Part shown: piece after piece, positions 1-18,789 of the stretch
Layout: each line of letters begins with the position of its first letter
How positions within the stretch are numbered: position 1 is the stretch's first letter
Assembly: GCF_010692525.1 (NCBI RefSeq)
Contig: NZ_JAAHHE010000120.1
Coordinates: 1 to 18,789, forward strand
DNA length: 18,789 nucleotides
From: Moorena sp. SIO3B2
Lineage (GTDB): Bacteria; Cyanobacteriota; Cyanobacteriia; Cyanobacteriales; Coleofasciculaceae
Reading direction: 5' to 3'
The notes under the pieces: model-generated
What the model saw: the letters and a program-made list of their open reading frames with translations, nothing else
What the model was told of the DNA's origin: nothing
Database searches by the model: none
Made by a program: the position numbers and the translations under genes

Positions 1-19
1 AAACCCCCAAGACCGTAAT

Positions 20-561: not shown

Positions 562-591
562 TTGATAGACTGGGGCATCCCATGAGATAAT
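562..591 (+). promoter_or_regulatory. Candidate sigma70-type promoter for rpmG-rpsR: TTGATA, 18-nt spacer, extended -10 TGaGATAAT
   Basis: ttgata at 562-567 and tgagataat at 583-591, about 45 nt upstream of the rpmG ATG. Pattern match only. Confidence 0.35.
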
Positions 592-638
592 AGTAAATTG
601 TGTTTAATTGTAATATTTGAGTTCTTAGAAAAAAAACT

Positions 639-833
639 ATGGCAAGTAAGAAAGGTGTCCGAATCGTTATTACTCTAGAATGTACTGAATGTCGCAGTTA
701 CTCCAATAAGCGCTCGGCTGGTGTTTCCCGCTATACCACTAGGAAGAATCGCCGTAACACATCATCACGTCTGGAACTGAAGAAATTTTGCACCCATTGC
801 AACAAGCACATGATTCACAAAGAAATCAAATAG
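639..833 (+). CDS. rpmG: 50S ribosomal protein L33
   Basis: 64 aa, [18 protein letters not shown]...[12 protein letters not shown]...[13 protein letters not shown]. Classic L33 zinc-ribbon sequence. Confidence 0.95.
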
Positions 834-882
834 ATTTGGTCCTTGGTCATTTGTGAATTGAATTTGTTAATTGAAAATGGAC

Positions 883-1240
883 TATTGACAAAGAACAAGC
901 AACAAAGAACAAGTATTCAGCTTATGTGCTACGCACACGCGTGCGCGTTCAGCGGTCAGCTATCAGCGGTCAGCTCAAGTAACTCAGCTTAAACCAATGC
1001 TTACCTGTTTTATTGTAAGCATTCAGTGGTCAGCCGTGAACATTGGCCTTTGAGTCACGCTACGCGAATGGCTCACTCTACTTCAGGTGCCGTCAGAATA
1101 AAAGAAACCTAAGCAGCTTAAGTAGCGTGCTAATAGCCCATAAGCTGATAGCTGATAGCTGATAGCTGAATACTTACCAAAGAACAAATGACTATAATCA
1201 GTAACCAGTAACCTAAATAACCAATCACCAATCACAACCA
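883..1240. repeat. Intergenic block of short tandem repeats (STRR-like heptamers and 11-12-mers) and small palindromes
   Basis: caaagaacaag x2; cagcggtcagct x2; agctgat x4 (1141-1170); cagtaac x2; caatcac x2; palindrome acgcacacgcgtgcgcgt (927-944); hairpin aatgcttac-N11-gtaagcatt (1000-1028). Confidence 0.8.
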
Positions 1241-1243
1241 ATC

Positions 1244-1459
1244 ATGACTTACTTTCGTAAACGTCTCTCTCCGATCAAACCCGATGAACCGATCGACTAT
1301 AAAGATGTTGAGTTGCTGCGCAAGTTTATCACTGAACGGGGAAAAATCCTACCCCGCCGCATTACTAATCTAACGACTCAACAACAACGAAAGCTAACCA
1401 CAGCCATTAAGCGAGCAAGGTTCTTGGCTTTGCTACCCTATATTAATAAAGAAGGTTAA
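1244..1459 (+). CDS. rpsR: 30S ribosomal protein S18
   Basis: 71 aa, [38 protein letters not shown]...[13 protein letters not shown]. Canonical S18. Confidence 0.95.
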
Positions 1460-1520
1460 GGTGAACAATCACGGTCTTCCTCTGGGATATTTCCCGTGTG
1501 AAGAATCAAATATCAAATAA

Positions 1521-1551
1521 GAAGGATGAAGGATGAAGTATGAAGGATGAA
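1521..1551. repeat. Heptamer tandem repeat gaaggat (about 4 units)
   Basis: gaaggatgaaggatgaagtatgaaggatga is read directly from the sequence. Confidence 0.8.
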
Positions 1552-1681
1552 ATGGGGTGATCGATGGCTGAGGCGCGCGATGCAGTGGCCTCACGGGGAA
1601 TTCCCCCACTCGCGCTCTGCATCAAGACATGGTTAACTAAAAACTTGCGACCCAACCAGGAGTTACACTGACCACTGACAA

Positions 1682-1713
1682 CTTCAGACTTCAGACTTCA
1701 GACTTTAGACTTG
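1682..1713. repeat. Heptamer tandem repeat cttcaga (about 4.5 units)
   Basis: cttcagacttcagacttcagactttagactt is read directly from the sequence. It lies just upstream of the exoribonuclease gene. Confidence 0.8.
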
Positions 1714-1802
1714 ACCCCGTCTGCCGAGTTGGGTATCTCAACAACACAGGATAGACTGGGGGGAGGTGGATTTGGTAAACGCTACCCGGGTTATCAGAAC
1801 TG

Positions 1803-3860: not shown

Positions 3861-4022
3861 ATCTCTGTCCTTTTATAAAAATCCCCCAAAGCCGAAAACC
3901 CCGTGTCTAATGACCGGGGATGAAGGCTCACAGCGGCTTGACGCGCCTAGAAAAATATTTCAGGAAAATCCGGAATTTTAGTCTGGATGTTGTAAAATAA
4001 GGGAGTGAACAGTTTAGGTCCC

Positions 4023-4118
4023 AGACGAAACCTTAGAATAGGGTCGCCTTTATGGTTTGTCGGCTATGGAAAAAGGGTTAAAACTGTTGTTATAAGGCGA
4101 CCCTATTCTTACGGTAAC
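4023..4118. repeat. ~96-bp palindromic hairpin element (PATE/MITE-like), copy A. It has a perfect 14-bp stem agaatagggtcgcc/ggcgaccctattct around a ~47-nt loop
   Basis: The loop is near-identical to copy B at 4906-5003. It lies 13 nt upstream of the tnpB ATG. Confidence 0.8.
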
Positions 4119-4130
4119 TTTAAGAAGCTG

Positions 4131-5477
4131 ATGATCATTTTAGAGTTCAAGGCGAAAGGAAAAAAACATCAATACTCTGGGATCAACGAGGCTATCCGGA
4201 CAGTCCAGTTCATCCGTAATAGCTGCCTCAGGTATTGGATGGAAAATAAAGGGGTCAACAAATTTGACCTTAATAAGTACAGTGCAGTCCTTGCTAAAAA
4301 CTTTCCTTTTGCTAATGAATTAAACTCTACTGCTCGTCAGTCTAGTGCTGAAAGAGCATGGTCATCAATTGTTCGATTCTTTGATAACTGCAAGAAAAAA
4401 GTACCTGGAAAGAAAGGTTTTCCTAAGTTCCAGAAAAACTGCCGCTCAGTGGAGTATAAACAGTCTGGATGGAAGTTATCCCCTGACAAGAAGTCAATCA
4501 CCTTTAGTGATAAAAAGGGTATTGGGAAGCTTAAGCTTAAAGGTACATGGGACTTGTGGCGCTTGGATAAAAAGGAAATAAAGCGAGTCCGTATAGTTCG
4601 CCGGGCTGATGGTTATTATGTCCAGTTTTGTGTTTCAGTTGATATCAAAGAGGAACTAGAGCCAAGTGGGACAGCTATCGGCTTGGATGTTGGACTAAAA
4701 TATTTTTACACTGATTCCGCTGGAAAAACTGAACCAAATCCCTGCTTTTACAGAACGGTAGAAAAACGCCTTAAGTTCTACCAGCGTCGAGTTTCTCGCA
4801 AGAAGAAAGGCTCATCCAATCGAAATAAAGCAGTTAATAGACTAGGCAGACAGCACCTTAAGATAAGTAGGCAACGTGAAGAGAACGCCAAGAGACTGGG
4901 AACGAAGTTACCGTAAGAATAAAGAAGCCTTTATGGTTAGTCGGCTATGCATAAAAGGGTTAAATCTTTGTTATTAAGGCTTCTTTATTCTAAGGTTTCG
5001 TCTCCGGCGCGCTGCGTAATCTGTTCTAACGATCTGGTCGCCTAGGTCGACTTAAGAGCCAAGAACCTAGTAAAAAATCACTGCCTCGCTAAGTCTATTA
5101 ATGATGCAGGTTGGTATCAGTTTAGGAAATGGATGGAGCACTTTGGCACCAAGTTCGGAAAGGTAACAGTTGCAGTAAATCCTGCATATACCAGCCAAAA
5201 CTGTTCCAATTGTGGCGAAGAAGTTAAAAAGTCCCTATCAACTAGGACTCATACGTGCAAGTGTGGTTGTCAGTTAGATAGAGACCACAACGCCGCAATA
5301 AACATCCTTAAGAAAGCCTTGGGTACGGTGGGGCACACCGGAACCTGGATCTTAAAAGATCTAAACGCTTCAGGAGAATCGGCCTCTACTGTTCTTGGTT
5401 CCGGCCAGGTTCAGCAAGCTGGCTCGTTGAATGAAGAATCCCCGCGTATGCGCGACCGGGGAGTGTCAAAAAACTAG
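4131..5477 (+). pseudogene. tnpB: tnpB (IS200/IS605 OrfB, RuvC-like nuclease), disrupted
   Basis: N-part MIILEFKAKGKKHQYSGINEAIRTVQFIRNSCLRYWMEN...AIGLDVGLKYFYTDSAG (RuvC-I). C-part FGTKFGKVTVAVNPAYTSQNCSNCGE...CKCGCQLDRDHNAAINI (Zn finger plus RuvC-III). The reading frame is broken by the 96-nt hairpin insert (stop at 4914) and by an in-frame TAG at 5043. Confidence 0.85.
4906..5003. repeat. ~96-bp palindromic hairpin element, copy B, inserted inside tnpB. It has a perfect 14-bp stem agaataaagaagcc/ggcttctttattct
   Basis: Insert between codons KLP (4911) and ARCVI (5007). Its length is a multiple of 3 but it carries a stop. The loop is co-linear with copy A. Confidence 0.8.
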
Positions 5478-5490
5478 AAAGCTTGCTTTG

Positions 5491-7065
5491 ATGTCTCGAC
5501 ATAAGTACAAGAGATTAAAACACCAAATCATCCGGGTACCGAGCCGTTGGTACTTCTGCCTATCTTTGGCTATTACCATCCTGCTGGGATGGCTTGGTGT
5601 AGCAGTAGCACAAGATAGTAACACGAATAATTTCACTAACCTGTCTACTATCTGGTTGTTAGTTTCATCTTTTCTAGTCTTTTTTATGAATGCTGGCTTT
5701 GCCATGTTAGAAGCCGGGTTATGTAGACGGAGAAATGCGACTAATGTCTTGGCTAAAAATTTGATAGTTTTCTGTATATCAGCCTTAGCCTTTTGGCTAG
5801 TTGGCTTTGGCTTAATGTTTGGTGATGGCATCACTTACAGTTGTGTTCCAGGAGAAAATAATAGTTTAAGTTTAGTGGGTCAAAAGGGGTTGTTTTTTAA
5901 TCTTCCCTTTCCCCAATTTGGAAATCTTGGTTTTCCAGAATCAGGATTTAATTGTCTCAATCAAGATTGGTCTAATCGCTCCTTTGCGGCTCTATTTTTA
6001 TTTCAGTTAGTCTTTGCTGGAACTGCAGCCACTATTGTTTCAGGAGCTGTTGCTGAACGGGTAAAATTCTGGGCATTTCTCCTATTTAGTTTTTTCCTGG
6101 TTGGTTTTATCTATCCCGTAACCGGTCACTGGGTTTGGGGACACTATGGTTGGCTAGCCAAGGCGCTAAAATTTCATGATTTTGCGGGTTCAACTGTAGT
6201 CCATAGTGTTGGTGGTATGGCTGGCTTGGTAGGGGCTTGGCTACTAAAGCCACGACAAGGTCGTTTTGGCTACAATTTAAGAACAGATAGATATGAAGGT
6301 CTCGAAACTGAAAAGTTCTCTGCCGATAATCTGGGTTTAGCCACCTTAGGCTGCTTAATTCTTTGGCTGGGCTGGTTTGGTTTTAATGGTGGCTCAGCAA
6401 AGGATCTCGATTATGTAGCTAATACCATCACAACTACCATGATGGCAGCAGCAGCTGGTGGAATATCCAGCGTATTTTTTAGTCCAATTATCCTGGGAAA
6501 ACCCAGTCTAGCCTCAATTATCAATGGCATTTTAGGTGGGTTGGTGGGAATTACAGCCTCAGCTGCTTTTGTAGATATCAAAAGTGCATTTATAATTGGC
6601 TCTATCAGCGGTATTTTTGTCCTTTTAGGCGAATATTTTCTACAAGTTTGGAAAATTGACGACCCCGTAGGTTCGATTCCTGTTCACCTTTTCTGTGGAT
6701 TTTGGGGAACGATTGCCTTAGGAATCTTTAGTAGCAATAGTTCTCTGTTGTACTCGGAACTTGATGTATATGACGATCCATTATTACAAGTGTTGTGTCA
6801 GTTCTTAGGCTGGCTGATTATTATCATTGTAACAGCTCTATTGAGTTTATTAGGTTGGCTATTAGTTAGCCTAATTTTATATTATGCAAGCCATATCAAT
6901 GAGCGGATTAGCGGCAAACAACGCCATAGGAAACAATTACGTCAAACCCAATATTTTCAATTGGGAGAATTTATCTTAACTATTTTTGAAATTGCTCGTC
7001 GAGGAATTAGGGTATCTTTGGAAGAAGAAATCAGTGGTAGCGATGGAGTTTTTTATAATCCTTAG
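5491..7065 (+). CDS. amt: Ammonium transporter (Amt/MEP family)
   Basis: FFMNAGFAMLEAG, the signature GWFGFNGGS, VHLFCGFWGTIALGIF, about 11 TM segments and an N-terminal signal-like region. Start set at the ATG at 5491. The track ORF began at an upstream alternative codon, 5431. Confidence 0.9.
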   Translation: MSRHKYKRLKHQIIRVPSRWYFCLSLAITILLGWLGVAVAQDSNTNNFTNLSTIWLLVSSFLVFFMNAGFAMLEAGLCRRRNATNVLAKNLIVFCISALAFWLVGFGLMFGDGITYSCVPGENNSLSLVGQKGLFFNLPFPQFGNLGFPESGFNCLNQDWSNRSFAALFLFQLVFAGTAATIVSGAVAERVKFWAFLLFSFFLVGFIYPVTGHWVWGHYGWLAKALKFHDFAGSTVVHSVGGMAGLVGAWLLKPRQGRFGYNLRTDRYEGLETEKFSADNLGLATLGCLILWLGWFGFNGGSAKDLDYVANTITTTMMAAAAGGISSVFFSPIILGKPSLASIINGILGGLVGITASAAFVDIKSAFIIGSISGIFVLLGEYFLQVWKIDDPVGSIPVHLFCGFWGTIALGIFSSNSSLLYSELDVYDDPLLQVLCQFLGWLIIIIVTALLSLLGWLLVSLILYYASHINERISGKQRHRKQLRQTQYFQLGEFILTIFEIARRGIRVSLEEEISGSDGVFYNP

Positions 7066-7149
7066 AAGAATCTGGCTTATCAGTAAATAGCTAAGTCTTT
7101 AAAAGTAGGCAATAAAATAAATTTTTATTGACTAAAACCAGTCTATTAA

Positions 7150-7290
7150 GTTAGATTAATTAGTTAAATTAATTAGTTATTTAGTTAACTGTTTGCTAAA
7201 AATCCATGCATGAATTTCCTATTCCCTGTTCCCTGTTGCCACAACTACTGATTTAACAATTTAATTTAACAATTTAACAATTTAACAATT
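7150..7290. repeat. AT-rich tandem repeats: ttaattagtta-type units, ttccctg x2, and caatttaa x4-5
   Basis: Read directly from the sequence in the convergent intergenic region between amt and the 7293-8486 gene. Confidence 0.75.
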
Positions 7291-7292
7291 GA

Positions 7293-8486
7293 TTACCCCA
7301 AATATTTAGCAGCTGGACAATCTAATTTTATTAGATAGTTTCTCAACCAATTAGCATAATTCTCATTATTCCTATCCCATCGACGGAAAAAACGTGGAAG
7401 AGATTTTTGTTTAAACTGGTAGTAACGCTCTGATACTTGACAAAGATTTATAGTAGCTTGCTTGAATTCACCTTGACTAGCGAGCTCTTCTATAGCATAG
7501 GAAAACTGCAATTGATCTAACATTGACTGACATAGCTTGGGAAAAGCACTATTTTGACTCTTTATCTTTCTAAGTTGCTCTATTTGTTCTTTTCTGGTAG
7601 TAAATTGGCGTCTGCATATGTCCTCAGAAGCAAGGTTTTTTAGTTGATCGTCTGCTCTTCTAGCACTAGTACACTGAAATACACCAAAGGTAATGACTAG
7701 AAACAAGGCGATCAAGCCACCCCAAAAACTAATGGGTGATGGGATTCTGCTAGCTGATGAGGTAGCCAAGGTTGTGGCTTGGTCTGGCTCTAAAGGTACT
7801 ACAGTTGATTGGTTGGGCTCGTCAGTTGTTAGATCTGGGTGTTTGGGTTCATCAGTTGTCAGCTCTGAGTGTTTAGGCTGGTCAGTTGTGAGATCTTGGT
7901 CTTGAGTAACTGGGGTGATTGGTAGGTTAGGAAAAACCATGGCGATGGCTTGATCAGTAGCATCTGTCGTCAGCTCAGATGCCAACCAATAGTCTGTACT
8001 GGTCAACTGTGCTAACTCTTGAGCTACCCAGCTGTGATTAAAAACAACCTCATAAATACGGTTAGAAACTTTTAAATTTCCCCCCTGGTTAATCACCACA
8101 CCGGAGTTGAGCAACACTTTTTGTTCCCAACTGTCATTTGCCATCATGACTCCCTGCAAAATTTTCTGATATAGCCGCAGGAATTGTTCTTCGAGCAAGA
8201 AACTACGAATATCTTGCAGAAGTTCAGCGGCTTCCTGAGTTTCCCAATTTTCAACGAAGTGAGTTTTGACTAGTTCTTCGACTTTGAGAGCTTCCTCACC
8301 AACAGGGATGGGAGATTTAGAGTCAAGGATAACTTGACAAAGCTTCTGGGTCAAAAAAGGCTGAGAGCCAGTCCATGCCAGTACCTCGTCTAAGACAACA
8401 TCAGGGTTACTCAGATGCTCAGCCAATGCGAGTTTGAATGGTTCGAGGATTTTAGCCACCTCAGGTTTATCCTGCTTAGAGGTCAT
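7293..8486 (-). CDS. Hypothetical membrane protein: N-terminal ~190-aa soluble domain, T/D/E/P-rich tandem repeats, one TM helix, and a C-terminal ~130-aa domain
   Basis: 397-aa ORF. TM segment ISFWGGLIALFLVITFGVF. Repeats DLTTDQPKHSELTTDEPKHPDLTTDEP are encoded by three ~30-nt DNA repeats at 7815-7907. No family is confidently recognised. Confidence 0.6.
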   Translation of the reverse strand: MTSKQDKPEVAKILEPFKLALAEHLSNPDVVLDEVLAWTGSQPFLTQKLCQVILDSKSPIPVGEEALKVEELVKTHFVENWETQEAAELLQDIRSFLLEEQFLRLYQKILQGVMMANDSWEQKVLLNSGVVINQGGNLKVSNRIYEVVFNHSWVAQELAQLTSTDYWLASELTTDATDQAIAMVFPNLPITPVTQDQDLTTDQPKHSELTTDEPKHPDLTTDEPNQSTVVPLEPDQATTLATSSASRIPSPISFWGGLIALFLVITFGVFQCTSARRADDQLKNLASEDICRRQFTTRKEQIEQLRKIKSQNSAFPKLCQSMLDQLQFSYAIEELASQGEFKQATINLCQVSERYYQFKQKSLPRFFRRWDRNNENYANWLRNYLIKLDCPAAKYLG

Positions 8487-8628
8487 TTCATTCCTTGTGT
8501 ATTCCAGACTATTTTTCCTTCAAACATATTTTGTGATAGTCTTGAATTTTCGATCAAGATTAACAAGGAATTTCTATGATCTACAAGCCAGGTTATGGGT
8601 AAGATATGGGGTGTAAACTACATGTCCA

Positions 8629-8973
8629 CTACATGTCCATTACATCCAACCCCTCTGATGGCATAATCTTTCCCCCAAACGACTTAACTACATCTTCAAA
8701 CAAGGGCATATCATCCTGTGGGATTTCCACTACTACTACCATTTTGGCATATTCCTCTGCTCCTTCTTCCTTGTATTCTATTTGCTCGAAGGGCAGGTCT
8801 GTTGTCCAATCGTCTGAATTGCTATCAATCATAGGGACGTTGGGCAACAGTTCTTCAACTGGGATAGCGCGAGGTTTAAAAGGCAGATCGACGCAAAATC
8901 GAGGCAGTGCCTGATGAGAAAAATTAACGAAATCCACGGGATTGCTAAACACGACTGAAACTTGGACTTTCAT
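8629..8973 (-). CDS. Hypothetical protein (114 aa, acidic)
   Basis: ORF on the same strand, 142 nt upstream of the 7293-8486 gene. The overlapping plus-strand ORF is S/T-rich low complexity and less plausible. Confidence 0.45.
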   Translation of the reverse strand: MKVQVSVVFSNPVDFVNFSHQALPRFCVDLPFKPRAIPVEELLPNVPMIDSNSDDWTTDLPFEQIEYKEEGAEEYAKMVVVVEIPQDDMPLFEDVVKSFGGKIMPSEGLDVMDM

Positions 8974-9158
8974 AATCTATGCTATGGTATTAAATCTATT
9001 GAGACTAAGTTGAATTAATACATCATAGCAAAGATGAGCAGTGAGACAGCCTCTGACTTCCAGTCATGGCAAATCTGGGTCTAATACCCCCGTTAACCAA
9101 ACTGGTAATATGAACATTATATTGTATCGCAATGACTCAATTTAGGAATTGATGCCTG

Positions 9159-9554
9159 GTGAATAAAGACGTATCAAGGAGTTTGGTTTACGAGTTCCAG
9201 CCTCATCAGATTATTTGTTTAGAGCATGACAATACTCGTTTATACGCTGAAGTGATCGAATTTGTGTCATCGCGACAAATGTGTTGGGTGCGTTCTATGA
9301 TATTGGTCACCTTGCATAGTCAAGAGCCTGTGCCAGTGGAACTCCCTGAACAGCTTACTCTTTACGACCTACGCTCTGGACCGGATTTACTTTGGCCAGC
9401 GAGTTTATTACGACTAGCCTTAGACACTGAAGTAATTCCCCTCTTGGTTCGGTTAGATGACCCTGATGTCAATGTAGAAAGTGACCCTGATGCTCGCCAG
9501 CAACTAAGTTATTTTATCTGTGCAGTTTGGCAAGCTTATCCTGAAAAGTTTTAA
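9159..9554 (+). CDS. Hypothetical protein (131 aa)
   Basis: ORF divergent from the 8629-8973 gene. A weak hairpin acccct-N22-aggggtttt follows at about 9634-9672. No family is recognised. Confidence 0.45.
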   Translation: MNKDVSRSLVYEFQPHQIICLEHDNTRLYAEVIEFVSSRQMCWVRSMILVTLHSQEPVPVELPEQLTLYDLRSGPDLLWPASLLRLALDTEVIPLLVRLDDPDVNVESDPDARQQLSYFICAVWQAYPEKF

Positions 9555-9706
9555 GTTTTTTTAATGGTTAATCGGTAATAGGACTTTGCCAACTCAATGG
9601 TGATCTGATCACGACTCAAGCAGTAGCAAGTCAGACCCCTTAGGAGAGTAAACTAAAGTTGTAGGGGTTTTGCCACATGTAGCTGTCAGAGCTTGCCCCA
9701 ACCCTG

Positions 9707-9743
9707 AAAGTCATGGCTAAAAGTCATGGCTAAAAGTCATGGA
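9707..9743. repeat. 13-nt tandem repeat aaagtcatggcta, about 2.8 copies
   Basis: Read directly from the sequence. Confidence 0.8.
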
Positions 9744-9794
9744 GTAGTTACCAAGCCTCCGAGCTGGTCTAGCCTTAGTTTATAACCACTTTTT

Positions 9795-9989
9795 CTAGTG
9801 ACTCGGAACTAGCTGTACACGACCAGCATCCATCTCAGACATTAATAATTCCAGTGCTTCGTAATCCACATCAGAGATGTAACCAGTTTGAGTTAGTTCG
9901 TAGTTAATTGCATTTTCTATATCAGGAGTCAATTTCCTAATATAGAGGGCTTTTTCTACTAGTTGACGAATAACAAATGTAGTTTTCAC
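9795..9989 (-). CDS. Small hypothetical protein (64 aa)
   Basis: ORF only. No recognisable motif. It may be spurious. Confidence 0.3.
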   Translation of the reverse strand: MKTTFVIRQLVEKALYIRKLTPDIENAINYELTQTGYISDVDYEALELLMSEMDAGRVQLVPSH

Positions 9990-10214
9990 AATTACTTACC
10001 CACAATTCCATATAACTTTATTGTCTTCTGAAATTACTAGCCACTATAGTGATCTTTATCTTATTGGGATGTGATCTAAATCACTGATGAGGTGGATTGG
10101 TACTCTCTGACATATATATTACATATATATTATATGCCTTTTGGACTTAACTCAGAAAGCTTAACCTGAACGGAAGAAGCTATGCCGTTTCAAGGGTTAG
10201 AGGTATTGAAGTTT

Positions 10215-10336
10215 AGGTGCGACCCGTTCGCGTAGCGTTGGCAAAGCCAATAGGTGCGACCCAAGGGCGATTTATTCGCCCTTGGAGGCGCGCACCAATA
10301 GGTGCGAATTTAATTCTTAATGGGTCAAGCGCACCT
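10215..10336. repeat. Cluster of three (a)ggtgcga-type units. The third unit, 10301-10335, is the reverse complement of the copy at 14353-14397. The second unit contains the palindrome aagggcgatttattcgccctt
   Basis: The string ggtgcgaatttaattcttaatgggtcaagcgcacc reverse-complements to ggtgcgcttgacccattaagaattaaattcgcacc, which matches 14353-14397 apart from a 9-nt indel. Confidence 0.7.
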
Positions 10337-10681
10337 AAGGCAGTTATAAGGACATACTGCTTAGTACTACTTGCCTCTACACCCTAGTTAACGTTATACT
10401 TATCTAAGGCTAAACATTTGGCTCAAGCCTATAACAAAAAGTATTATATTTCTATGTCAGGGCAGCTCTATTTAGTTAACGTAACAAAAATTATTAAAAT
10501 TTAATCCCTACTTATAGGCATCAACTGAGCCATGCTCTTAGCAACTTAGACCATCGGAAATGAAAAATAAATTACTTAACTTGAAAAAAAGTAATATATG
10601 ATACATTTTGATGGTAAGTTTAATGAAGATTTCAAAAACCATTAGCAATCTGTAAAGATTCGGCAAAGTCTATCAGAAGTG

Positions 10682-10706
10682 GTATGGAATTAGCGAAATT
10701 CCATAC
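10682..10706. promoter_or_regulatory. Perfect 10-bp inverted repeat gtatggaatt-N5-aattccatac, a candidate operator upstream of the STAS gene
   Basis: The palindrome lies 60-85 nt upstream of ATG 10766. An SD-like gaggag sits 7 nt before the ATG. Confidence 0.4.
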
Positions 10707-10765
10707 TATCTTCAATATATTCTCTATAAAATTTTATTGGATTTGACCAAGTGAGGAGTCTACTC

Positions 10766-11098
10766 ATGACACAGGCGACCCTGAGTGCAAAATTAAGAAT
10801 TATTCAACCTTCCGGTCATATTAACGCTTCTAATGCAATTGAGTTTAAAAGTCAGTTGACAGAAGCTGTGGTGGCTGCTGAGGATTCGGCTTTGTTGGTT
10901 GATATGCATCAGTTAGAGTCTCTCGACAGTGCTGGCTTAATGGCCTTAATTCATGGTCTGAAGCTAGCAAGAAGTCTAGAGAGGCGCTTTGGTCTTTGCT
11001 CCGTAGCTCCTTCAATTCGAATTATGCTGGAGCTAACTAAATTAGATGGGGTGTTTGAGATTTTTGACAGCCATGAGGCTTTTGCTACAGCCCTCTAG
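10766..11098 (+). CDS. STAS-domain protein (SpoIIAA-like anti-sigma-factor antagonist)
   Basis: 110 aa from the ATG with a GAGGAG ribosome-binding site. Sequence ...LVDMHQLESLDSAGLMALIHGLKLARS... is typical of STAS. The track start at 10751 is a GTG upstream of the SD. Confidence 0.8.
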   Translation: MTQATLSAKLRIIQPSGHINASNAIEFKSQLTEAVVAAEDSALLVDMHQLESLDSAGLMALIHGLKLARSLERRFGLCSVAPSIRIMLELTKLDGVFEIFDSHEAFATAL

Positions 11099-11344
11099 GG
11101 GGTTGGAGTAGGTTGGGAAGCTAACTCAATGGCTCTGAGTGCAGCAAAATCATAGGAAATCTTGGGAAGATTAAGTGCTTACAGCGATGATGATGGGAGG
11201 AGATAGGGAAATACCAGTTAAGAAGTATGGTGGTTATTATCTCCCTCACTTCATCCACCTTCACCCCCTTATCTCTAGCCTGAGTACTGATAAAATCAAA
11301 GGTGGATCAGGGTTAACTGCATTGAAAGCAGTAATAAAGTTTCT

Positions 11345-14245
11345 ATGGCAATCACTGTAGAGGAAATATTAACACCAGACATCAACAGACCAGCCCGTTA
11401 CTTAGGTAACGAGTTGGGAGCAGTCCATAAACCTTGGGAAGAAGCTGAGGTACGCTGGGTATTGACTTATCCAGAAATCTATGAAGTGGGGGCTTCTAAC
11501 TTAGGCCATATCATCCTCTACAATATATTGAATTATCAACCTAGGCAATTATGCGATCGCGCCTATCTACCTGCCCCAGACTTGGCAGCTAAATTACGTT
11601 CCACTCAAACCCCTCTGTTTGCTGTCGAGAATCGGCGACCTCTGAAAGATTTTGATATTATTGGCTTTAGCCTTAGCTATGAATTAGGGGCAACCAACAT
11701 CTTGGAAATGTTGGATTTGGGAGGAATTCCCCTGACCTGGAAAGACCGTGCTCAGTTTGATATATCGGAAATACCCCTAATTTTTGCAGGTGGACAAACG
11801 GCGACATCGAATCCTGAACCCTATGCTGATTTCTTAGATTTTGTTGATCTTGGCGATGGGGAAGAATTGTTGCCAGAGATTGGCTTAGTAATCGAAGAAG
11901 GCAAAGCAGCTGGCTTAAGTCGAGAAGCGTTACTCCTGGATTTGGCTCAGATACCAGGGGTGTATGTCCCCCAATTCTATGATATGACTGAGGATGGCTC
12001 AGTTAAACCCAACCGCCCTGATGTGCCGAAGCGGATTTTGCGGCGTGTGGCTACACCGATGCCTGCCTATGCTATTGGACTAGTACCCTATATCCAAACG
12101 GTTCATGACCGACTCAAGATCGAAGTGCGACGGGGCTGTACTCGGGGTTGTCGCTTCTGCCAACCTGGGATGCTGACTCGACCAGCGCGGGATGTGGAAC
12201 CAGAAAAAGTGGTGGAAGCTATTGAACAAGGGATGCGTGCTACAGGGTATAACGAGTTTTCCCTTCTATCCCTGAGTTGTTCGGATTACCTGGCTCTACC
12301 AGCGGTGGGGATGGAAATCAAAAATCGTCTTAAGGATCAGAATATTTCCTTGTCCCTACCGAGTCAGCGGGTAGACCGCTTTGATGAGAATATTGCCAAT
12401 ATCCTAGGGGGCAATCGGCAGAGTGGCTTGACCTTTGCCCCAGAAGCAGGAACTCAGCGGATGCGGGATATTGTTAATAAGGGACTGACTAATGAAGAAC
12501 TGCTCAGGGGAGTAAAGACGGCATTTGAGCAAGGCTGGGAGAAAGTCAAGCTCTATTTTATGATTGGTTTGCCCGGTGAAACGGATATGGATGTGTTGGG
12601 GATTGCGGAAACGGTGCGTTGGTTGCAGCAGGAGTGCCGTGCTAAAGGCAGAAAAACCATTAAGTTTAACATAACTGTTTCTAATTTTACCCCAAAACCT
12701 CACACCCCATTCCAGTGGCATTCCGTATCGACTTCGGAGTTTGAACGCAAGCAGGAATTACTCAAACAAGTATTTGGTCAGATCAGGGGGGTGAAGGTTA
12801 ATTACACCGATGTTCGGATTTCGGCCATGGAAGATTTCGTGGGACGGGGTGACAGACGCTTAAGTGCGGTGGTGCGCCGTGCTTGGGAATTGGGGGCAGG
12901 GATGGACTCCTGGATGGAAAGCTTGGATCGGGCATTTGCTGCTTGGGAAAATGCGATCGCTTCATCAGGTCTGACCTGGAAATATCGCCAAGTAGAAAAT
13001 GGCGAATGGAACGTGATGGCGGGTGTAGAAGAGTTGCAAGTTGGAAGGTTGTTCGCGAAGCGTGGCCAAAAGGCCAAGGTTGAAAGTTCAGAGCAACCAG
13101 CTAACCTACAACCAGCTAACCTACAACCAACTAACCGACAACCAACTAACCGACAACCAACTAACCTTCAACCAGCTAACCTTCAACCAACTAACCTTCA
13201 ACCAACTAACCTTCAACCTTCTAACCTTCAACCTTCTAACCTTCAACCTTCTAACCTTCAACCTTCTAACCTTCAACCAGCTAACCTTCAACCAGCTAAC
13301 CTTCAACCGTCAACCCTTAACGCCCTTGATGCTCCCTTGCCTTGGGATCATATTGATACGGGAATTGATAAGAATTGGCTCAAGGAAGATTTACAACGGG
13401 CGTTAGATGCAGCAACGGTACCGGATTGTTCCTTTGATGGGTGTTCTCACTGTGGTGTGTGTGGGATTGATTTTGGTCATAATGTGGTGATTGACCCGCC
13501 ACAGATTCCGCAATTTGCTGGTCACTTTAAACCCAATACTAATAAGGATCAGCGGCTGCGGGTTTGGTTTGGAAAGTTGGGGGATATGACCTTGTTGGGT
13601 CATCTGGATTTGGCAAGTCTGTTTGAGAGAGCAGTAAGACGGGCGTCACTGCCAATTCGATATAGTGGGGGGTTTCGGGCTAATGCTCGGATTATGATTG
13701 CTAATGCGTTGCCCTTGGGAGCGTCTAGCAGTGGGGAGATTGTGGAGTTTGAGTTAACTGAGAAAATGCCAGTTGAGGAGTTTAGGGAAAGGCTGGTGTC
13801 TCAGTTGCCTGAAGAGATTCCGGTGTATGGGGTTGAAGCAGTGGATTTGAAGGAACCTGCGGGAACTCAGCTGTTGGAGAGAGCTGAGTATTTGATTCGA
13901 GTTGAGGTAATATCAGAAGCGTCTTGGGAAGAGTGGCAGGGTTGGATTGAAGCAATCAAAGGTAGTAAGGAAATTTGGTGGGAGCGGTTTACGAAGTCGG
14001 GGAAGAAGCAGTGGGTGAATTTATGCGATCGCTTATTTGACTTCGAGGTGATCGAACCCCAAAAATCCAAAGATGGTGAAGAGGAGGTTGCGGAGTCTGG
14101 GGTGGTTTTGCGGTATGTGGGGAGTTGTTTGAATGATGGCACGATGTTGCGACCAGAGCACATTATTTATATGTTGGAGCAGGTGGCGCAGCGGGAGTTT
14201 CGTTTGTTGCATGTTCATCGGCAACGGTTGATTCTGCGCAATTGA
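11345..14245 (+). CDS. Radical SAM protein (B12-binding-domain type, TIGR03960-like) fused to a C-terminal DUF2344-like domain, with a repeat-expanded linker
   Basis: 966 aa. It has the CxxxCxxC cluster RGCTRGCRFCQPGM. The N-terminus PARYLGNELGAVHKPW is typical of this rSAM family. The C-terminal ~270 aa after the repeats resemble DUF2344. Confidence 0.9.
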   Translation: MAITVEEILTPDINRPARYLGNELGAVHKPWEEAEVRWVLTYPEIYEVGASNLGHIILYNILNYQPRQLCDRAYLPAPDLAAKLRSTQTPLFAVENRRPLKDFDIIGFSLSYELGATNILEMLDLGGIPLTWKDRAQFDISEIPLIFAGGQTATSNPEPYADFLDFVDLGDGEELLPEIGLVIEEGKAAGLSREALLLDLAQIPGVYVPQFYDMTEDGSVKPNRPDVPKRILRRVATPMPAYAIGLVPYIQTVHDRLKIEVRRGCTRGCRFCQPGMLTRPARDVEPEKVVEAIEQGMRATGYNEFSLLSLSCSDYLALPAVGMEIKNRLKDQNISLSLPSQRVDRFDENIANILGGNRQSGLTFAPEAGTQRMRDIVNKGLTNEELLRGVKTAFEQGWEKVKLYFMIGLPGETDMDVLGIAETVRWLQQECRAKGRKTIKFNITVSNFTPKPHTPFQWHSVSTSEFERKQELLKQVFGQIRGVKVNYTDVRISAMEDFVGRGDRRLSAVVRRAWELGAGMDSWMESLDRAFAAWENAIASSGLTWKYRQVENGEWNVMAGVEELQVGRLFAKRGQKAKVESSEQPANLQPANLQPTNRQPTNRQPTNLQPANLQPTNLQPTNLQPSNLQPSNLQPSNLQPSNLQPANLQPANLQPSTLNALDAPLPWDHIDTGIDKNWLKEDLQRALDAATVPDCSFDGCSHCGVCGIDFGHNVVIDPPQIPQFAGHFKPNTNKDQRLRVWFGKLGDMTLLGHLDLASLFERAVRRASLPIRYSGGFRANARIMIANALPLGASSSGEIVEFELTEKMPVEEFRERLVSQLPEEIPVYGVEAVDLKEPAGTQLLERAEYLIRVEVISEASWEEWQGWIEAIKGSKEIWWERFTKSGKKQWVNLCDRLFDFEVIEPQKSKDGEEEVAESGVVLRYVGSCLNDGTMLRPEHIIYMLEQVAQREFRLLHVHRQRLILRN
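13094..13319 (+). repeat. 15 in-frame tandem copies of a 15-nt unit (caaccagctaacctt and variants), encoding (P[AST]N[LR]Q)x15 inside the rSAM gene
   Basis: Read directly. Unit variants are ..gct/act/tct.. and ..cta/cga/ctt... The repeat generates spurious ORFs on other frames (13041-13406 + and 13121-13306 -). Confidence 0.95.
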
Positions 14246-14352
14246 GAAATTTGGCGTTGCTGAATTAAGGTATGATTGGCTAAAAATGTGGCGTTGCTGA
14301 ATCAATCAATGAATATGAGTGGGGTGGACATCCTGCCTGCCCAAAAAGATCC

Positions 14353-14397
14353 GGTGCGCTTGACCCATTAAGAATTAAATTCGCCACGGGTCGCACC
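14353..14397. repeat. ggtgcg...cgcacc hairpin repeat copy, inverted relative to the 10301-10335 copy
   Basis: See 10215-10336. It shares its 3' half with the copy at 20-63. Confidence 0.7.
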
Positions 14398-14588
14398 GTC
14401 AGGAACGGGCAAGATGCCCATTCCACAAAACTATTCAAATCATTCCATTATTAAGCAACGCCTCAAAGAATGGTCTAAGGAAAAGAAAATCACTGCTTTG
14501 ATAAGGAAAGCCAATGGTACGGGAGTAATCAAAATTAGCCATTACCCATTACCAATAATTATCTTCTCACTGAGCTGGATTGATCTAG

Positions 14589-15458
14589 CTAACAATTATT
14601 ATTTTTAATCCTGCCATTAGGCATAATAGTGTTACAGAAAATAGCATCATTTAAGTCAGCCTTAGCTAATTTAGCCTTTTTAAGATTAGCATGGCTGAAA
14701 TTAGCCTCACTCAAATCAGCATCATGAAAGTCAACACCTTCTAAATTGGCATAACTTAGGTTGGCGGCTCTCAAGTCAGTATTATACAGTCTTGCACCAC
14801 TCAAATTAGCATGACTAAGGTTAGCGCCACACAGTTCTTCATAACCTAGGTTGACATTTTTCAAGTCTAAACCGCTTAAGTCAGCCTCGGCACAAATAAA
14901 GATTGCTCCGGCTTTTGATGGGTTAAATCCAGTCGGAAACTCAGTGTATGACGTATAGATAGCTTTGGTAAAATTTATACTACTCAGGTCAGCTTTTTTC
15001 CAGCCATCAACCCCTAGCATACGGGCATAACTGAGGTTAGCATTGCTCAGGTCAGAATCACCTACGTAAACCTCACATAAGGTAGCATAACTAAAATTGG
15101 CATCCCTGAGCTTACTAGTAGCTATATAGATTACAGATAAATCCGCATAACTCAGATCAGTACCACTAAAATCACAGTTTTCCAAGGTTGATTCAGAGGC
15201 TACTATATGACTCAAGTTAGCCTTAGTAAGGTTAGAATTTTCGATAGTGGTTTCGTATAGGTAAGCATTCCTCAAGTTAGCATGACTTAGATCTACATCA
15301 TCCCAAGTAGCTTCCTCTAAATCAGCATTACTCAAGTCCGCATTTTTTAGACAAACACCCTTGAAATTAGTACTTTTTAAGTTAGCCTTTTTCAAATTAA
15401 TACCAGAAAAATCTCTTTCACCGGCTTCGTAGCGTTTTAGGAAGTCATCACGATTCAT
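14589..15458 (-). CDS. Pentapeptide-repeat protein
   Basis: 289 aa. Continuous A(D/N)LSxANLxxA-type pentapeptide units run throughout. Confidence 0.9.
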   Translation of the reverse strand: MNRDDFLKRYEAGERDFSGINLKKANLKSTNFKGVCLKNADLSNADLEEATWDDVDLSHANLRNAYLYETTIENSNLTKANLSHIVASESTLENCDFSGTDLSYADLSVIYIATSKLRDANFSYATLCEVYVGDSDLSNANLSYARMLGVDGWKKADLSSINFTKAIYTSYTEFPTGFNPSKAGAIFICAEADLSGLDLKNVNLGYEELCGANLSHANLSGARLYNTDLRAANLSYANLEGVDFHDADLSEANFSHANLKKAKLAKADLNDAIFCNTIMPNGRIKNNNC

Positions 15459-16109
15459 AGTATGCCCCTTATTTGTTTAATATTAGATAGTAATCATCCT
15501 GATTATATCCTAAAAAAAAATATTAGTATTTTTAGAGGTTGGGTTAATGATTAATGGTTAATAGTTGTTAGTACTTAATGCTATCAAGCCTAATATAAGG
15601 TGGCCTCATACCTCATCGTTAATGTTCCGATCAGCAATCACATCTCCTATCCCAGGGGTTTGATGAAATTGCTCCCAACTCCATAAACTCAACGTAGTCA
15701 TAACGAGTTTGGGTTATTTTGGCAGAACAGAAAAAGAAAGGTTACTTTAGTTTTATAGCGAGTTCCTTTGCTGTCAGGTTACAAAATAGTTGATTGTTGA
15801 TTAGGCTTTAGGGATAAACCATGAACTATAGCAATCCTACATGAATCCTGATATTTCCTGATCCGAAGCTCCCTTGGTAAAACAATTTTGCTCACAACTG
15901 ACTTGGGATTTATATAGGCACAATACTGTATCTAAATACCTGAACATAAATGCTGTTAACTGTGTTGAAACCCTTAACGTTGTTCAACCCCTTTATGTTC
16001 TCGGTTCGCCGTTCCCTATTCCCTTATCTGATCAGTCAACTTTCATTGTGTATGACTACTTACGACCGATGAAGGCAACTTAGTAATCTAGTTCGATTAG
16101 ACCGAGACT

Positions 16110-16583
16110 ATGACTACAACTGAGCGTAAAACAGAGAAGAAAATGGAAGTGCCTAGAACAACTAGTGAAGTGATTCGCATCAAGCCCCAACAGTTTATTC
16201 ATGTGCTAGACAACAATACTGGTGTTACGCGACTGGAGGTTGGTCCTCAAACCATTACCCTTCGGGATCACGAGCGGCTGATCTTAAAACCTGAACCGAT
16301 GATTATTGTGCCGCCTCGATATTATTGTGTGGTGGCTAATCCATTACTCCGGGATGAAGACGGTCAACCCATTGCTGATCAGCATGGTCAAATTCGACTG
16401 CGCTACGGTGATCTGGAAATTCGTTTCGCGCAAGATCCGTTTCCCCTTTATCCAAACGAGAAACTGGTAGGGGATTTGACACTCCCCGTTCTTCTAGGAC
16501 GGGGAGTGTCAAAGGCAGAAAATATAGCCATTGAGTCTACAGGTCAGGCAACAGCAGAAGCAAGAGCTAAGGAATACTCTTAA
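16110..16583 (+). pseudogene. Major vault protein (MVP) homolog, N-terminal remnant (repeat domains 1-2) joined to a short cap-helix-like piece and then truncated
   Basis: IRIKPQQFIHVLDNNTGVTRLEVGP, VPPRYYCVVANP and [25 protein letters not shown] match the recalled MVP N-terminus ([25 protein letters not shown] / VPPRHYCTVANP / [25 protein letters not shown]). A full MVP is about 850 aa, so the middle is missing. Confidence 0.75.
16476..16512. repeat. Perfect palindrome ttgacactccccg-N11-cggggagtgtcaa with a 13-bp stem. It carries the same motif as the tnpB right-end hairpin at 5440-5470
   Basis: Read directly. It lies at the point where MVP N-terminal homology ends. Confidence 0.85.
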
Positions 16584-18271
16584 ACCGTCATCAATCGGGA
16601 TAAAACCGAATAAAACGGCCAAGGTGCATTTTATTGATGTCTGAGTGAGGAGCGGTCAAGTAGCAATTGGAGTCAAGCCTCCCGCTCATCTATCTAGACG
16701 TTCCTCACATCCCGGTGAGGAGTTCCTTAAAAGCTTGAGTTTTGGCATGCTTGCGGTCAAGCCATCCTAGCTTAACCGCGTCAGCTAAAGTCAAATCCAT
16801 ACCTTCTAAGAAACGCGCAGTACGACGCAACAATACTGCCTGCACTTCAACCCTAGTCATAAACCGGGAGATTCCTTGATCTGTACCACGAGCAAGGATA
16901 TTCTTCGCAGCATTGTGATCAGCCTGCAACACGACCCCATTAAATCTGATAAAACTGTCCCCAATCCTTGCTCCCAATAAGGTGCCAGAAAAGGAGTCAA
17001 TTTGCGACGTGTAGCTTGGCTGGACTTCTGTCACAACCGAACCAGTCCAATTAGCCCATTTCTGCAAGGAGTACCGCATTTCTCCTTTCATCCAGCTATT
17101 CAACTTGCGAGACATAGCCTTTGACTGGCGTTTATTTTTGATTGGTTGCGTTAAATCCTCAGCAAAAATTCTTAGAGATTCTCCTTTGAAGAGGGATTTA
17201 GAAGCAGCCCCTATAATCGCCCTCAACTCTGATTGATCTCTTCTGTAACGACTGTTTTCTGTTTTTCGACTCAGATTATTTTTCAGTATCCGAGCTGATT
17301 TAGCTGGATCTATTTTTTCTAGCTTCCTATGTATTGCCCAGAGTTTTCCTCTGTTCCGATTTTTGGCGCATATTCGATGGCCAAAAGGCCACGCTACGCG
17401 AACGGATTTTATGGTTGCTATTTTGCCCAGGTTCTTCCCGTGTGCCTGACCATCTGAATCATAAAAAGCCTCGGTGTATCCCTTGTCTACTCCTATCGCT
17501 CGACGTTCAGGAGGAATCTCAGCTGTCCCGTGATTAACCAAAAAATGAATCTCAAATCTTGCCAGTAGAGAGTTGTATATTAGTCTAATCTGTCCTTTAA
17601 TATTTCGATTAGACCTAACTATTAGTTTGTTTCTTTTTCCTCTTCTGATTCCAGCTAATTCCAATTGATAAGTATAACGAGACAATCGTTTACACGAGTA
17701 TCCTCCTTGTTGGTATACAACTTGATTCTTGACCCAATAATGTCCTCTCTGAAACTCTTTCCTTACAAGTCTGTGCAATAGTGGATTATCCAGAAAAGCT
17801 GAAGTTTTGAGTTGCTTAGAGATATCCTTTCTGATCTTCTGGTTTTCCTTTCCAGGAAACCTCTTATAGATCTTTTTTATGACTGCCTCAATGGAAGCCG
17901 CTTGTTGAGCTGTGATAGTTTTAGCTACATCACTGACAGTCCATTCCATTAACTTGGAAGGCAAGCCCAGGGACTCAGGCTTCCTGAAGTCCCTGACTTC
18001 TGGGTAGGCTTTTTTCCAGTCAAGTCCCCAATGACTTATACTACCCAGCTTGTTGTAAGACTCAGACCTGACGACGCCTAGTTTTTTCATCGTAGACAAC
18101 AGCTCAAGCTCAACCGACTTAGCTATCCCTACAACTGGGACGACCTGAGTCGATATCTTCTTTACTGCGCCTACTTTCTTTTGCATCATCAACGGTGTGT
18201 ACAGCTTTTGCTATATACTGCCATTATAGTCTAGCGCTATAAAATTGTCAATGTCCAGTTCGCACTATTAA
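16584..18271 (-). mobile_element. Insertion element carrying a TnpB-like gene, minus orientation. Ends are approximate
   Basis: MVP-like coding sequence stops at 16583 and resumes at 18272. The 3' flank contains the hairpin cctcacatcccggtgagg. Confidence 0.5.
16705..18192 (-). CDS. TnpB-like (IS200/IS605 OrfB-type) RuvC-fold nuclease/transposase-associated protein, 495 aa, without the usual CxxC..CxxC zinc finger
   Basis: RuvC-I AIGVDKGYTEAFYDSDGQ, RuvC-II IFAEDLTQPIKNKRQSKAMSRKLNSW, RuvC-III VVLQADHNAAKNILARG. There are no Cys residues between RuvC-II and RuvC-III. Confidence 0.75.
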   Translation of the reverse strand: MMMQKKVGAVKKISTQVVPVVGIAKSVELELLSTMKKLGVVRSESYNKLGSISHWGLDWKKAYPEVRDFRKPESLGLPSKLMEWTVSDVAKTITAQQAASIEAVIKKIYKRFPGKENQKIRKDISKQLKTSAFLDNPLLHRLVRKEFQRGHYWVKNQVVYQQGGYSCKRLSRYTYQLELAGIRRGKRNKLIVRSNRNIKGQIRLIYNSLLARFEIHFLVNHGTAEIPPERRAIGVDKGYTEAFYDSDGQAHGKNLGKIATIKSVRVAWPFGHRICAKNRNRGKLWAIHRKLEKIDPAKSARILKNNLSRKTENSRYRRDQSELRAIIGAASKSLFKGESLRIFAEDLTQPIKNKRQSKAMSRKLNSWMKGEMRYSLQKWANWTGSVVTEVQPSYTSQIDSFSGTLLGARIGDSFIRFNGVVLQADHNAAKNILARGTDQGISRFMTRVEVQAVLLRRTARFLEGMDLTLADAVKLGWLDRKHAKTQAFKELLTGM

Positions 18272-18516
18272 ATACAGTTTTGTCCTAATTTTTCGGGACT
18301 TGACTGCGAGGCTCACATTAAGAGTGAAGAATACCGACAGAAAGTAGAAGCAATTGGTCCTCAAACCATTCAAGCGATCGCACAAGCAGGTCCGGAAATG
18401 CAGGCAAGACTTCTAGAAGCACTTGGTATCCAGAGTGTTTTGATTACCGATGGCAAAAATCCCATCAATCTATTTGGTGCAGCTAATGGTCTGATTAGTC
18501 CGCCAACTTCTAACTA
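18272..18516 (+). pseudogene. MVP homolog, C-terminal remnant (cap-helix end and cap-ring)
   Basis: [55 protein letters not shown] matches the recalled MVP [55 protein letters not shown]. Confidence 0.7.
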
Positions 18517-18528
18517 AGTACATGTGTA

Positions 18529-18566
18529 TCTGCTGCGCGCAGCAGACACAGCGCGCAGCAGACACA
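18529..18566. repeat. 18-bp perfect palindrome tctgctgcgcgcagcaga overlapping a tandem 16-mer gcgcgcagcagacaca x2
   Basis: Read directly. It sits just downstream of the MVP stop. Confidence 0.85.
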
Positions 18567-18586
18567 GATAGACTGATAACCCAACG

Positions 18587-18612
18587 CTATCTTACCGGTC
18601 TATCTTACCGGT
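18587..18612. repeat. 13-nt tandem repeat ctatcttaccggt x2
   Basis: Read directly. It overlaps the stop codon of the minus-strand partial CDS. Confidence 0.8.
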
Positions 18613-18789
18613 CTATATGTGTCGAAGGTTGAGAGTTGAGGTGTTGCTCAACTCTGTTAATGACCCCTAGTACGAGAAACAGAGCAAATACTACAGCAAC
18701 ACCGATAGCAGTCCACTTGAAAAAAACTAACTTTGGCCGACCTTTAGCTGGATAACCACAACTGAGGCAAATTTCATCGTTGGTGCTGG
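18605..18789 (-). CDS. Partial CDS, 3' end only (the gene continues beyond the window). Its C-terminus has CxxC and a TM helix
   Basis: Open frame from the window edge to TAA at 18605-18607, translating ...STNDEICLSCGYPAKGRPKLVFFKWTAIGVAVVFALFLVLGVINRVEQHLNSQPSTHIDR*. It is absent from the ORF track because no start lies in the window. Confidence 0.4.
   Translation of the reverse strand, partial: STNDEICLSCGYPAKGRPKLVFFKWTAIGVAVVFALFLVLGVINRVEQHLNSQPSTHIDR

Follow-up and report, generated by a model that had tools for sequence, protein, structure and literature searches.

A 15-Nucleotide Tandem Array in a Moorena Radical SAM Gene Is Probably the Expanded Arm of a Dispersed, Partly Palindromic Short-Repeat Element

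Introduction

How does a gene for a radical S-adenosylmethionine (SAM) protein come to carry 15 tandem copies of a 15-nucleotide (nt) unit, all of them translated in frame, and is such a repeat a property of the enzyme or of the genome in which it sits? The locus that raises this question lies on contig NZ_JAAHHE010000120.1 (positions 1 to 18,789 of the forward strand; assembly GCF_010692525.1) of Moorena sp. SIO3B2, a marine filamentous cyanobacterium with a genome of 8–10 Mb; this whole stretch of 18,789 nt is herein referred to as the window. The gene encodes a fusion of a B12-binding-type radical SAM region (TIGR03960) to a TIGR03936/DUF2344 domain, and an original prediction, made from the DNA letters alone, had singled out the array as a recently expanded linker between the two.

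In our view, the array probably represents the right arm, grown by expansion, of a short-repeat element that is composite and in part palindromic. This element would be one member of a family spread over Moorena genomes and would occupy, in the radical SAM protein, a surface loop that tolerates insertions. The window copy holds three components of this family, namely an inverted left arm, a 24-nt hairpin module and the tandem right arm (table 1). The best overall reading of the locus is that of a tolerated, slippage-prone selfish repeat, akin to the Rickettsia palindromic elements (RPEs), that encodes a disordered spacer.

Results and Discussion

An In-Frame Array in a Conserved Fusion Protein

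The host protein, which is identical to P0001 from an unclassified Moorena, contains the Pfam domains Radical_SAM_N2, Radical_SAM, and DUF2344 and scores above both NCBIfam cut-offs (TIGR03960: 597.6 bits, cut-off 462.3; TIGR03936: 186.4 bits, cut-off 71.9). The three cysteines of its radical SAM cluster motif CX3CX2C (RGC265TRGC269RFC272) are invariant in 61 orthologs, as are C695, C700, C703, and C706 of a Cys-rich tail that follows the array.

The array comprises 14 clean units and one degenerate unit (75 residues) in frame in the host open reading frame (ORF). Tandem Repeats Finder (TRF) reports a single array (13094–13308; period 15, 14.3 copies, 95% matches, score 297) and, read in codons from 13094, the units run QPANL (two), QPTNR (two), QPTNL, QPANL, and QPTNL (two) in the first half, followed by QPSNL (four), QPANL (two), and a degenerate QPSTL ending at 13318. 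Sites that match the unit with at most three mismatches number 15 in the window against 0.86 expected, a count that none of 200 shuffles reached, and each 15-mer is itself built of two near-identical half-units of 7 and 8 nt (CAACCTT and CTAACCTT). Unit variants are grouped in runs (CTA twice, CGA twice and then CTT, with GCT, ACT, and TCT in blocks). These runs of identical variants, together with the differences between strains described below, suggest that units are gained and lost through replication slippage or unequal recombination between near-identical units, and to this extent the original prediction of an in-frame expansion bearing such marks holds. Because the unit is 15 nt long and its reading frame contains no stop, no gain or loss would disturb the reading frame of the Cys-rich tail and DUF2344 domain that follow.

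An assembly artifact is an unlikely source of the 15-unit allele, because P0001, P0002 (found in M. producens 3L and others, on five contigs) and P0015 share an identical 15-unit linker despite substitutions elsewhere (three in P0002 and at least seven in P0015); with identical alleles in independent assemblies, we rejected that explanation. Also rejected was an overlapping ORF in another frame (13041–13406), which is open only because the NxLTF frame of the repeat has no stops.

The Same Unit Is Dispersed through Moorena Genomes

One genome per bacterial species was scanned for two consecutive units (CAACCNNCTAACCTT twice), with matches counted in 8-kb bins. The scan returned at least 98 bins, 91 of which lie in five Moorena genomes (27 in M. 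bouillonii PNG5-198, 30 in M. producens 3L, and 34 in three Moorena metagenome-assembled genomes [MAGs]) and seven in other cyanobacterial MAGs. None of the bins is the radical SAM locus itself, although the M. producens 3L protein has the array, and the count is therefore a lower bound. The 98 bins hold 166 arrays of 2–17 units, a range near the top of which stand the 15 units of the window.

Of the 166 arrays, 56 read QPxNL in an ORF whose non-repeat flank amounts to 200 residues or more, and 110 lie elsewhere. Non-coding arrays are built in the same way, among them one that immediately precedes an fmt-like start codon; some pass gradually into repeats of 8 nt (CTAACCNT). When the frame with the longest open flanks is taken for each array with at least 200 residues of flank, QPxNL accounts for 53, NxLTF for 5, and KVxxL (on the reverse strand) for 4; the three other frames of the unit contain stop codons. 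The layout seen in the window recurs in 40 host ORFs, in which a left arm reading ...LKVE/LQVG/LNVG... is followed by optional modules (AWPKGQGS, GQKATLRE, or LPYGNAKGE) and then by (QPxNL)n. By rotation-tolerant identity, 21 of 100 arrays have a recognizable inverted unit in the 120 nt that precede them, and none has one downstream; shuffled sequences gave one.

Seven of eight hosts scanned against Pfam are ordinary multidomain proteins with arrays between their domain matches. The array lies past the N-terminal head in SMC, past the OB domain in RecJ, between the UvrB-interaction and RID domains in Mfd/TRCF, and between the proline dehydrogenase and aldehyde dehydrogenase domains in PutA; CheA-like hybrid kinases carry arrays between Hpt and kinase domains and also between CheW and receiver domains, and the AcrB array falls midway through the family match and divides it. 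The window's array likewise divides the TIGR03960 match. Because the family is found in dozens of unrelated genes and in intergenic DNA, the repeat is a property of the genome and not of the gene, and a variable linker repeat in a radical SAM enzyme is, in the context of this family, ordinary.

A Composite Insert in a Hypervariable Segment

The original prediction took the flank ending in VGRLFAKRGQKAKVESSE for the end of the radical SAM core. This flank is itself inserted DNA, composed of inverted units and the 24-nt hairpin module, and belongs to the repeat element. Its first inverted stretch (left arm 1; 19 nt) is 84% complementary to the array units and pairs with the array in a predicted RNA fold, and its second (left arm 2; 13 nt) is 92% complementary to AACCTTCAACCTT; between them stands the module.

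The family consensus of the 24-nt module is GGCCAAAAGGCCACGCTACGCGAA, on the strand opposite to the window reading, and the core of the window's module agrees with the family at 12 of 13 positions. The module is missing from P0004, P0005, and P0007–P0013, which read ...RLKVESS..., whereas in strain SIO4A1 it occurs in the right arm, amplified five times together with one unit and read GQKATLRE, and in strain SIOASIH it lies at another point of the right arm in another frame, read WPKGHATRT. Because the module is present in some orthologs, absent from others and differently placed among those that have it, it is probably a secondary insertion into the repeat element. Of the 104 loci retrieved, 16 contain an exact copy, and from site to site the module is read as GQKATLRE, WPKGHATRT, FAKRGQKA, VREAWPKGQG, or RVAWPFGH; since the same 24 nt are thus read as different peptides, the identity of the family appears to reside in its DNA and not in the peptide. 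With at most one mismatch, the 13-nt module core (CACGCTACGCGAA) is found four times in the 18.8-kb window against 0.01 expected; two of the copies (1056 and 10227) fall in none of the listed ORFs, and the remaining two are inside ORFs. An exact copy of GGCCAAAAGGCCACGCTACGCGAA at 17379–17402 is in frame in a TnpB/Cas12f-like ORF (16705–18192, minus strand; Pfam Cas12f1-like_TNB), where it is read ...SVRVAWPFGHRI...; a transposon-associated gene has therefore also been invaded by the module.

On either side of the insert, the residues GEWNV and LDAPLPWDHI vary little or not at all among the 61 orthologs. The segment between them ranges from 13 to 113 residues (median 30) in 88 cyanobacterial orthologs and is polar and rich in Pro, Ser, and Gln; other genera have unlike repeated peptides in this same segment, such as SGVRSQE, IQNPKSK (IQNPKSKIQN), and AAGSRQQ. 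The array site is a permissive, hypervariable loop. The family has no solved structure in which this loop could be placed in three dimensions; only a distant radical SAM core was matched.

This loop does not lie exactly between the radical SAM core and the DUF2344 domain, where the original prediction had placed the array. The 48 residues past the array (661–708, LPWDHIDTGIDKNWL...CSFDGCSHCGVCG) still match positions 554–600 of the 605-position TIGR03960 profile, so that the array, which splits the TIGR03960 match at about profile positions 551 and 554, breaks into the radical SAM region before the Cys-rich tail of that region; the true TIGR03936 junction falls at about residues 709–736. In annotation, the array belongs inside the TIGR03960 region. 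As to the check proposed with the original prediction, whether the two domains are encoded by separate genes in other taxa, both arrangements exist: a search with the DUF2344/TIGR03936 domain returned 6812 representatives at E ≤ 0.001, of which many distant relatives are stand-alone proteins of 210–250 residues that match from residue 1–20, and others are fusions of 851–955 residues with the domain at the C-terminus.

Length Variation among Strains

Six orthologous DNAs were compared, including 2580 nt of the gene outside the linker. Moorena orthologs carry from 2 units (strain PAL) to 16, with linkers of 69–336 nt, and there are no indels in the other 2580 nt; all six DNAs remain in frame. 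SIO1G6 differs from the window at a single nucleotide of the 2580 outside the linker, and its linker has one QPSNL unit more and a shifted pair of L/R variants. The linkers of JHB (282 nt), SIO4A1 (336 nt), SIOASIH (171 nt), and PAL (69 nt) belong to genes that are each about 2.5% divergent from that of the window. The unit count among orthologs had been set beforehand as the test of the predicted length variability, and it is not uniform.

The further suggestion that the array is a contingency region fares less well. Copy number does vary between strains, as at a contingency locus; however, a 15-nt unit never shifts the frame and hence permits no on/off switching, the hosts of the family are cytoplasmic housekeeping proteins, and the variation is not extremely fast, strains 3–7 substitutions apart sharing the identical 15-unit allele.

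The element may be old at the radical SAM site, because QPxNL occupies the same position in a lineage that is only about 77% identical, in the form ELKVEKLKVESS-(NLQPx)3-4 and with other codons (CAACCTGCAAACCTG). In PAL (M. producens PAL-8-15-08-1; locus L099, gene at 1501–4149), a 9-nt stretch between two TTGCAA palindromes reads CCTTCCAAC, and at this TTGCAA-bounded stretch the window has the inverse, GTTGGAAGG. PAL lacks the whole left arm and the module and keeps only a small part of the array. This state suggests a hairpin-mediated inversion or deletion and not a simple loss of units.

A Probable Disordered Spacer and Its Alternatives

The (QPxNL)n peptide is probably a disordered spacer. 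In a full-length AlphaFold2 model, residues 542–659 are predicted as coil with a predicted local distance difference test (pLDDT) score of 24–31, a weak negative given that the model is poor overall (mean pLDDT 50.6). The flexible linker of the original prediction survives insofar as the segment has no predicted secondary structure; the accompanying remark that such a linker is unusual for an enzyme fusion does not, as the repeat family sits in dozens of unrelated genes.

The five-residue period invites comparison with the pentapeptide-repeat proteins (PF00805; Rfr fold), in which case the array would form a right-handed quadrilateral β-helix that serves as a rigid spacer or a DNA-mimic module between the SAM body and the C-terminal parts. 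Pentapeptide proteins are common in cyanobacteria, a true one adjoins the host gene, and the register x-N-L-Q-P, with N and L at positions i−1 and i, fits A(D/N)LXX: 14 of the 15 units read [ATS]-N-[LR]-Q-P, residues 585–662 give weak NCBIfam matches to Alr5209 (28.7 bits, E = 1e-6) and HetL (25.3 bits), and Pfam Pentapeptide_4 scores 20.5 bits on the segment. We nevertheless regard this fold as very unlikely and rejected it. The segment falls below the Pfam gathering scores (PF13599, 20.5 against 38; PF00805, 11.8 against 20.2), the whole host protein has no Pfam pentapeptide match at E ≤ 0.01, and the pentapeptide scores of the segment are no better than its matches to keratin and extensin low-complexity models, whereas the neighboring true pentapeptide protein, which served as a positive control, scores 194 bits. 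AlphaFold2 predicts no strands, with an alignment or for the segment alone, and hence no β-helix; moreover, Pro occupies i+2 in every unit and the inward-facing i−2 position is unconstrained, being A, T, or S in the window and P (31), D (27), or N (20) in 78 of the 278 units of sister ORF arrays. A copy number of 2–16 among strains and the presence of the same DNA in non-coding regions also speak against a folded module.

Two other explanations grant the repeat a function. Under one of them, the array is an adaptive, length-tunable tether in which selection on copy number sets the reach from the SAM body to the Cys-rich tail and DUF2344 domain. This would accord with the variation in copy number among strains with the frame always kept, with the retention of QPxNL in other codons at the same site in a second lineage, and with the strong preference for the QPxNL frame in genes. 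It is an unlikely explanation all the same, as the element is shared by numerous unrelated proteins and by intergenic DNA, orthologs function with segments of 13–113 residues of unrelated sequence, and the Moorena strain PAL has only 2 units; an allele shared across 3–7 substitutions gives no sign of rapid switching, and on/off phase variation is impossible with a 15-nt unit. The other, which seems to us the least probable of all, would have the arm, module and array act as nucleic acid, forming a structure in messenger RNA (mRNA) or single-stranded DNA with an effect on recombination, on mRNA stability, or on translation (e.g., through a pause between domains). A 306-nt region does have a predicted folding energy of −52.4 kcal/mol against −36.1 ± 3.9 for shuffled sequences (z = −4.2), in a fold in which the left arm pairs with array units and a GGCC-AAAA-GGCC hairpin forms, and inverted arms occur upstream only. 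However, a palindromic repeat pairs in this way automatically, an arm of 19 + 13 nt is short beside a 225-nt array, and among the orthologs PAL has no left arm and others hold inserts quite unlike that of the window.

We return to the dispersed selfish repeat, with the (QPxNL)n peptide as a proline-punctuated disordered spacer that would be tolerated and not selected for a function of its own. Only those versions that preserve the frame, contain no stop and do no structural harm would survive, and a filter of this kind would explain both the dominance of QPxNL and the location of arrays between domains. Several points weigh against this interpretation. A clear inverted arm accompanies only about one-fifth of the arrays, and, as to dispersal, neither a dedicated transposase nor target-site duplications turned up, although duplications were not specifically analyzed. 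Some loci may conceivably have been born independently by slippage from AACCTT-rich seeds, and the preference for the QPxNL frame, together with the recoded QPxNL of the lineage at about 77% identity, could reflect selection on the peptide. A "gene" in the host counts is a long ORF as opposed to a curated gene call, the same locus counted in several strains does not give independent observations, and copy numbers taken from short-read MAGs are possibly imperfect. As for disorder, the low quality of the full-length AlphaFold2 model follows from an alignment of close relatives only, and the segment modeled alone, which lacks secondary structure (predicted template modeling score 0.12), is a single-sequence prediction and thus a weak negative.

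Relation to Known Repeat Families

RPEs are selfish repeats that reside in frame in protein-coding genes of Rickettsia (Ogata et al. 2000), and in-frame colonization of genes is noted for some cyanobacterial miniature inverted-repeat transposable elements as well, according to two sources (PMC10969869, PMC3184786). The Moorena element resembles RPEs in being a dispersed family that is translated in frame at fold-compatible sites in many unrelated metabolic and housekeeping genes, with further copies between genes; a palindromic character may be shared as well, since the window copy has inverted arms and a GGCC hairpin. It differs from them in that RPEs are single elements of about 100–150 bp that encode a conserved peptide, whereas the Moorena element consists of a variable 15-nt array and a 24-nt module, has no sequence relationship to RPEs, belongs to another phylum and is polymorphic in copy number among strains.

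Short tandemly repeated repetitive (STRR) sequences, which are heptamers, and small dispersed repeats (SDRs) are known in cyanobacteria, the latter reportedly treated by Elhai and colleagues in a 2008 study entitled [quoted passage not shown] Like these, the Moorena family has short tandem units dispersed genome-wide, and its 24-nt hairpin is nested within the repeat as SDRs nest in repeats. Its units measure 15 nt, which is divisible by three, and not 7 nt, and about one-third of its arrays are translated in long ORFs, whereas STRR sequences are mainly intergenic; Moorena, furthermore, is a non-heterocystous genus of the Oscillatoriales, and the comparison is one of descriptions and not of published consensus sequences. 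Classic heptamer arrays are present in the window itself (1143–1169, 1195–1235, 1521–1551, and 1681–1712; AGCTGAT, TAACCAG, AATCACC, GAAGGAT, and ACTTCAG), where they flank a short S18-like ORF (1245–1458) upstream of an RNase II gene (1803–3860). With intragenic variable-number tandem repeats or minisatellites (e.g., MIRU-type and linker-repeat polymorphisms), the array shares in-frame slippage variation, clustered variants and possible use as a strain marker; unlike them, its unit family is common to dozens of loci and is not locus-specific. The Moorena family thus combines tandem dispersed repeats (a 15-nt array of 7 + 8 nt) with a nested 24-nt hairpin module and frequent translation within genes, and no account of it turned up in the literature that could be searched.

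We further propose, tentatively and with slightly less than even confidence, that the arm, 24-nt module and 15-nt array make up a self-propagating composite element present in Moorena and at least one related lineage, which has colonized dozens of inter-domain loops of housekeeping proteins in essentially one frame, (QPxNL)n, and would be a cyanobacterial, tandem-array counterpart of the RPEs. If this is true, the element is a natural generator of variable-length disordered linkers. One short repeat family has entered loops in multidomain proteins that are essential (SMC, RecJ, Mfd, PutA, AcrB, and CheA-like kinases). The repeat in the radical SAM protein is best treated as a tolerated passenger, and neither a functional linker nor a pentapeptide domain nor a phase-variation switch should be read into it. 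The family yields a ready-made map of insertion-tolerant sites in its host proteins, naturally variable markers for typing Moorena strains, and a test case for the co-evolution of selfish DNA and protein disorder outside Rickettsia.

Features of the Window

Table 1. Coordinates of the repeat element, its host gene and related features in the 18,789-nt window
Feature	Position	Strand	Basis
Host gene: TIGR03960 B12-binding-type radical SAM + TIGR03936/DUF2344 fusion, 966 residues	11345–14245	+	ORF list, translation, Pfam, NCBIfam
Main body of TIGR03960 match, residues 8–552, profile 3–551 of 605	11366–13000	+	NCBIfam
Whole hypervariable insert, residues 558–660	13016–13324	+	Lies between flanks ...YRQVENGEWNV and LDAPLPWDHI...
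Left arm 1: inverted (reverse-complement) unit copy, read ELQVGRL	13033–13051	+	Inverted-repeat pairs I1–I4
24-nt hairpin module, plus strand TTCGCGAAGCGTGGCCAAAAGGCC, read FAKRGQKA; splits the left arm	13052–13075	-	Ortholog comparison, family match
Left arm 2: inverted unit core AAGGTTGAAAGTT, read KVES	13076–13088	+	Inverted-repeat pairs I13–I16
Right arm: tandem array, 15 units of 15 nt (CAACCNNCTAACCTT), read (QP[ATS]N[LR])14 + QPSTL	13094–13318	+	TRF, codon reading, unit search
C-terminal tail of TIGR03960 region, residues 661–708, profile 554–600	13325–13468	+	Profile match, ortholog alignment
TIGR03936/DUF2344 domain, residues 737–962	13553–14230	+	Pfam, NCBIfam
Genuine pentapeptide-repeat protein, PF00805, 194 bits, 8 stretches; convergent with the radical SAM gene, directly downstream	14589–15458	-	
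Copies of the module core	1056–1068 (+), 10227–10239 (-), 13052–13064 (-), 17390–17402 (+)		Search with at most one mismatch

Beyond the repeat element and its host, adjacent ORFs at 4005–4916 and 5133–5477 (both on the plus strand) correspond to two halves of a TnpB-type protein (OrfB_IS605, then a Cas12f1-like TNB domain); this pair of ORFs is probably a split or decayed copy, and its second ORF overlaps the predicted start of an ammonium transporter ORF (5431–7065). A 157-residue ORF at 16110–16583 (plus strand) strongly matches the Major Vault Protein repeat domain (Vault_2, 93.6 bits), which is unexpected in a cyanobacterium. The window also holds a second in-frame coding repeat at 7813–7900, within an ORF on the minus strand (7293–8486; 397 residues, no Pfam match), which has a period of 30 nt (2.9 copies, 77% matches) and reads roughly (H)xELTTD(E/Q)PK three times.

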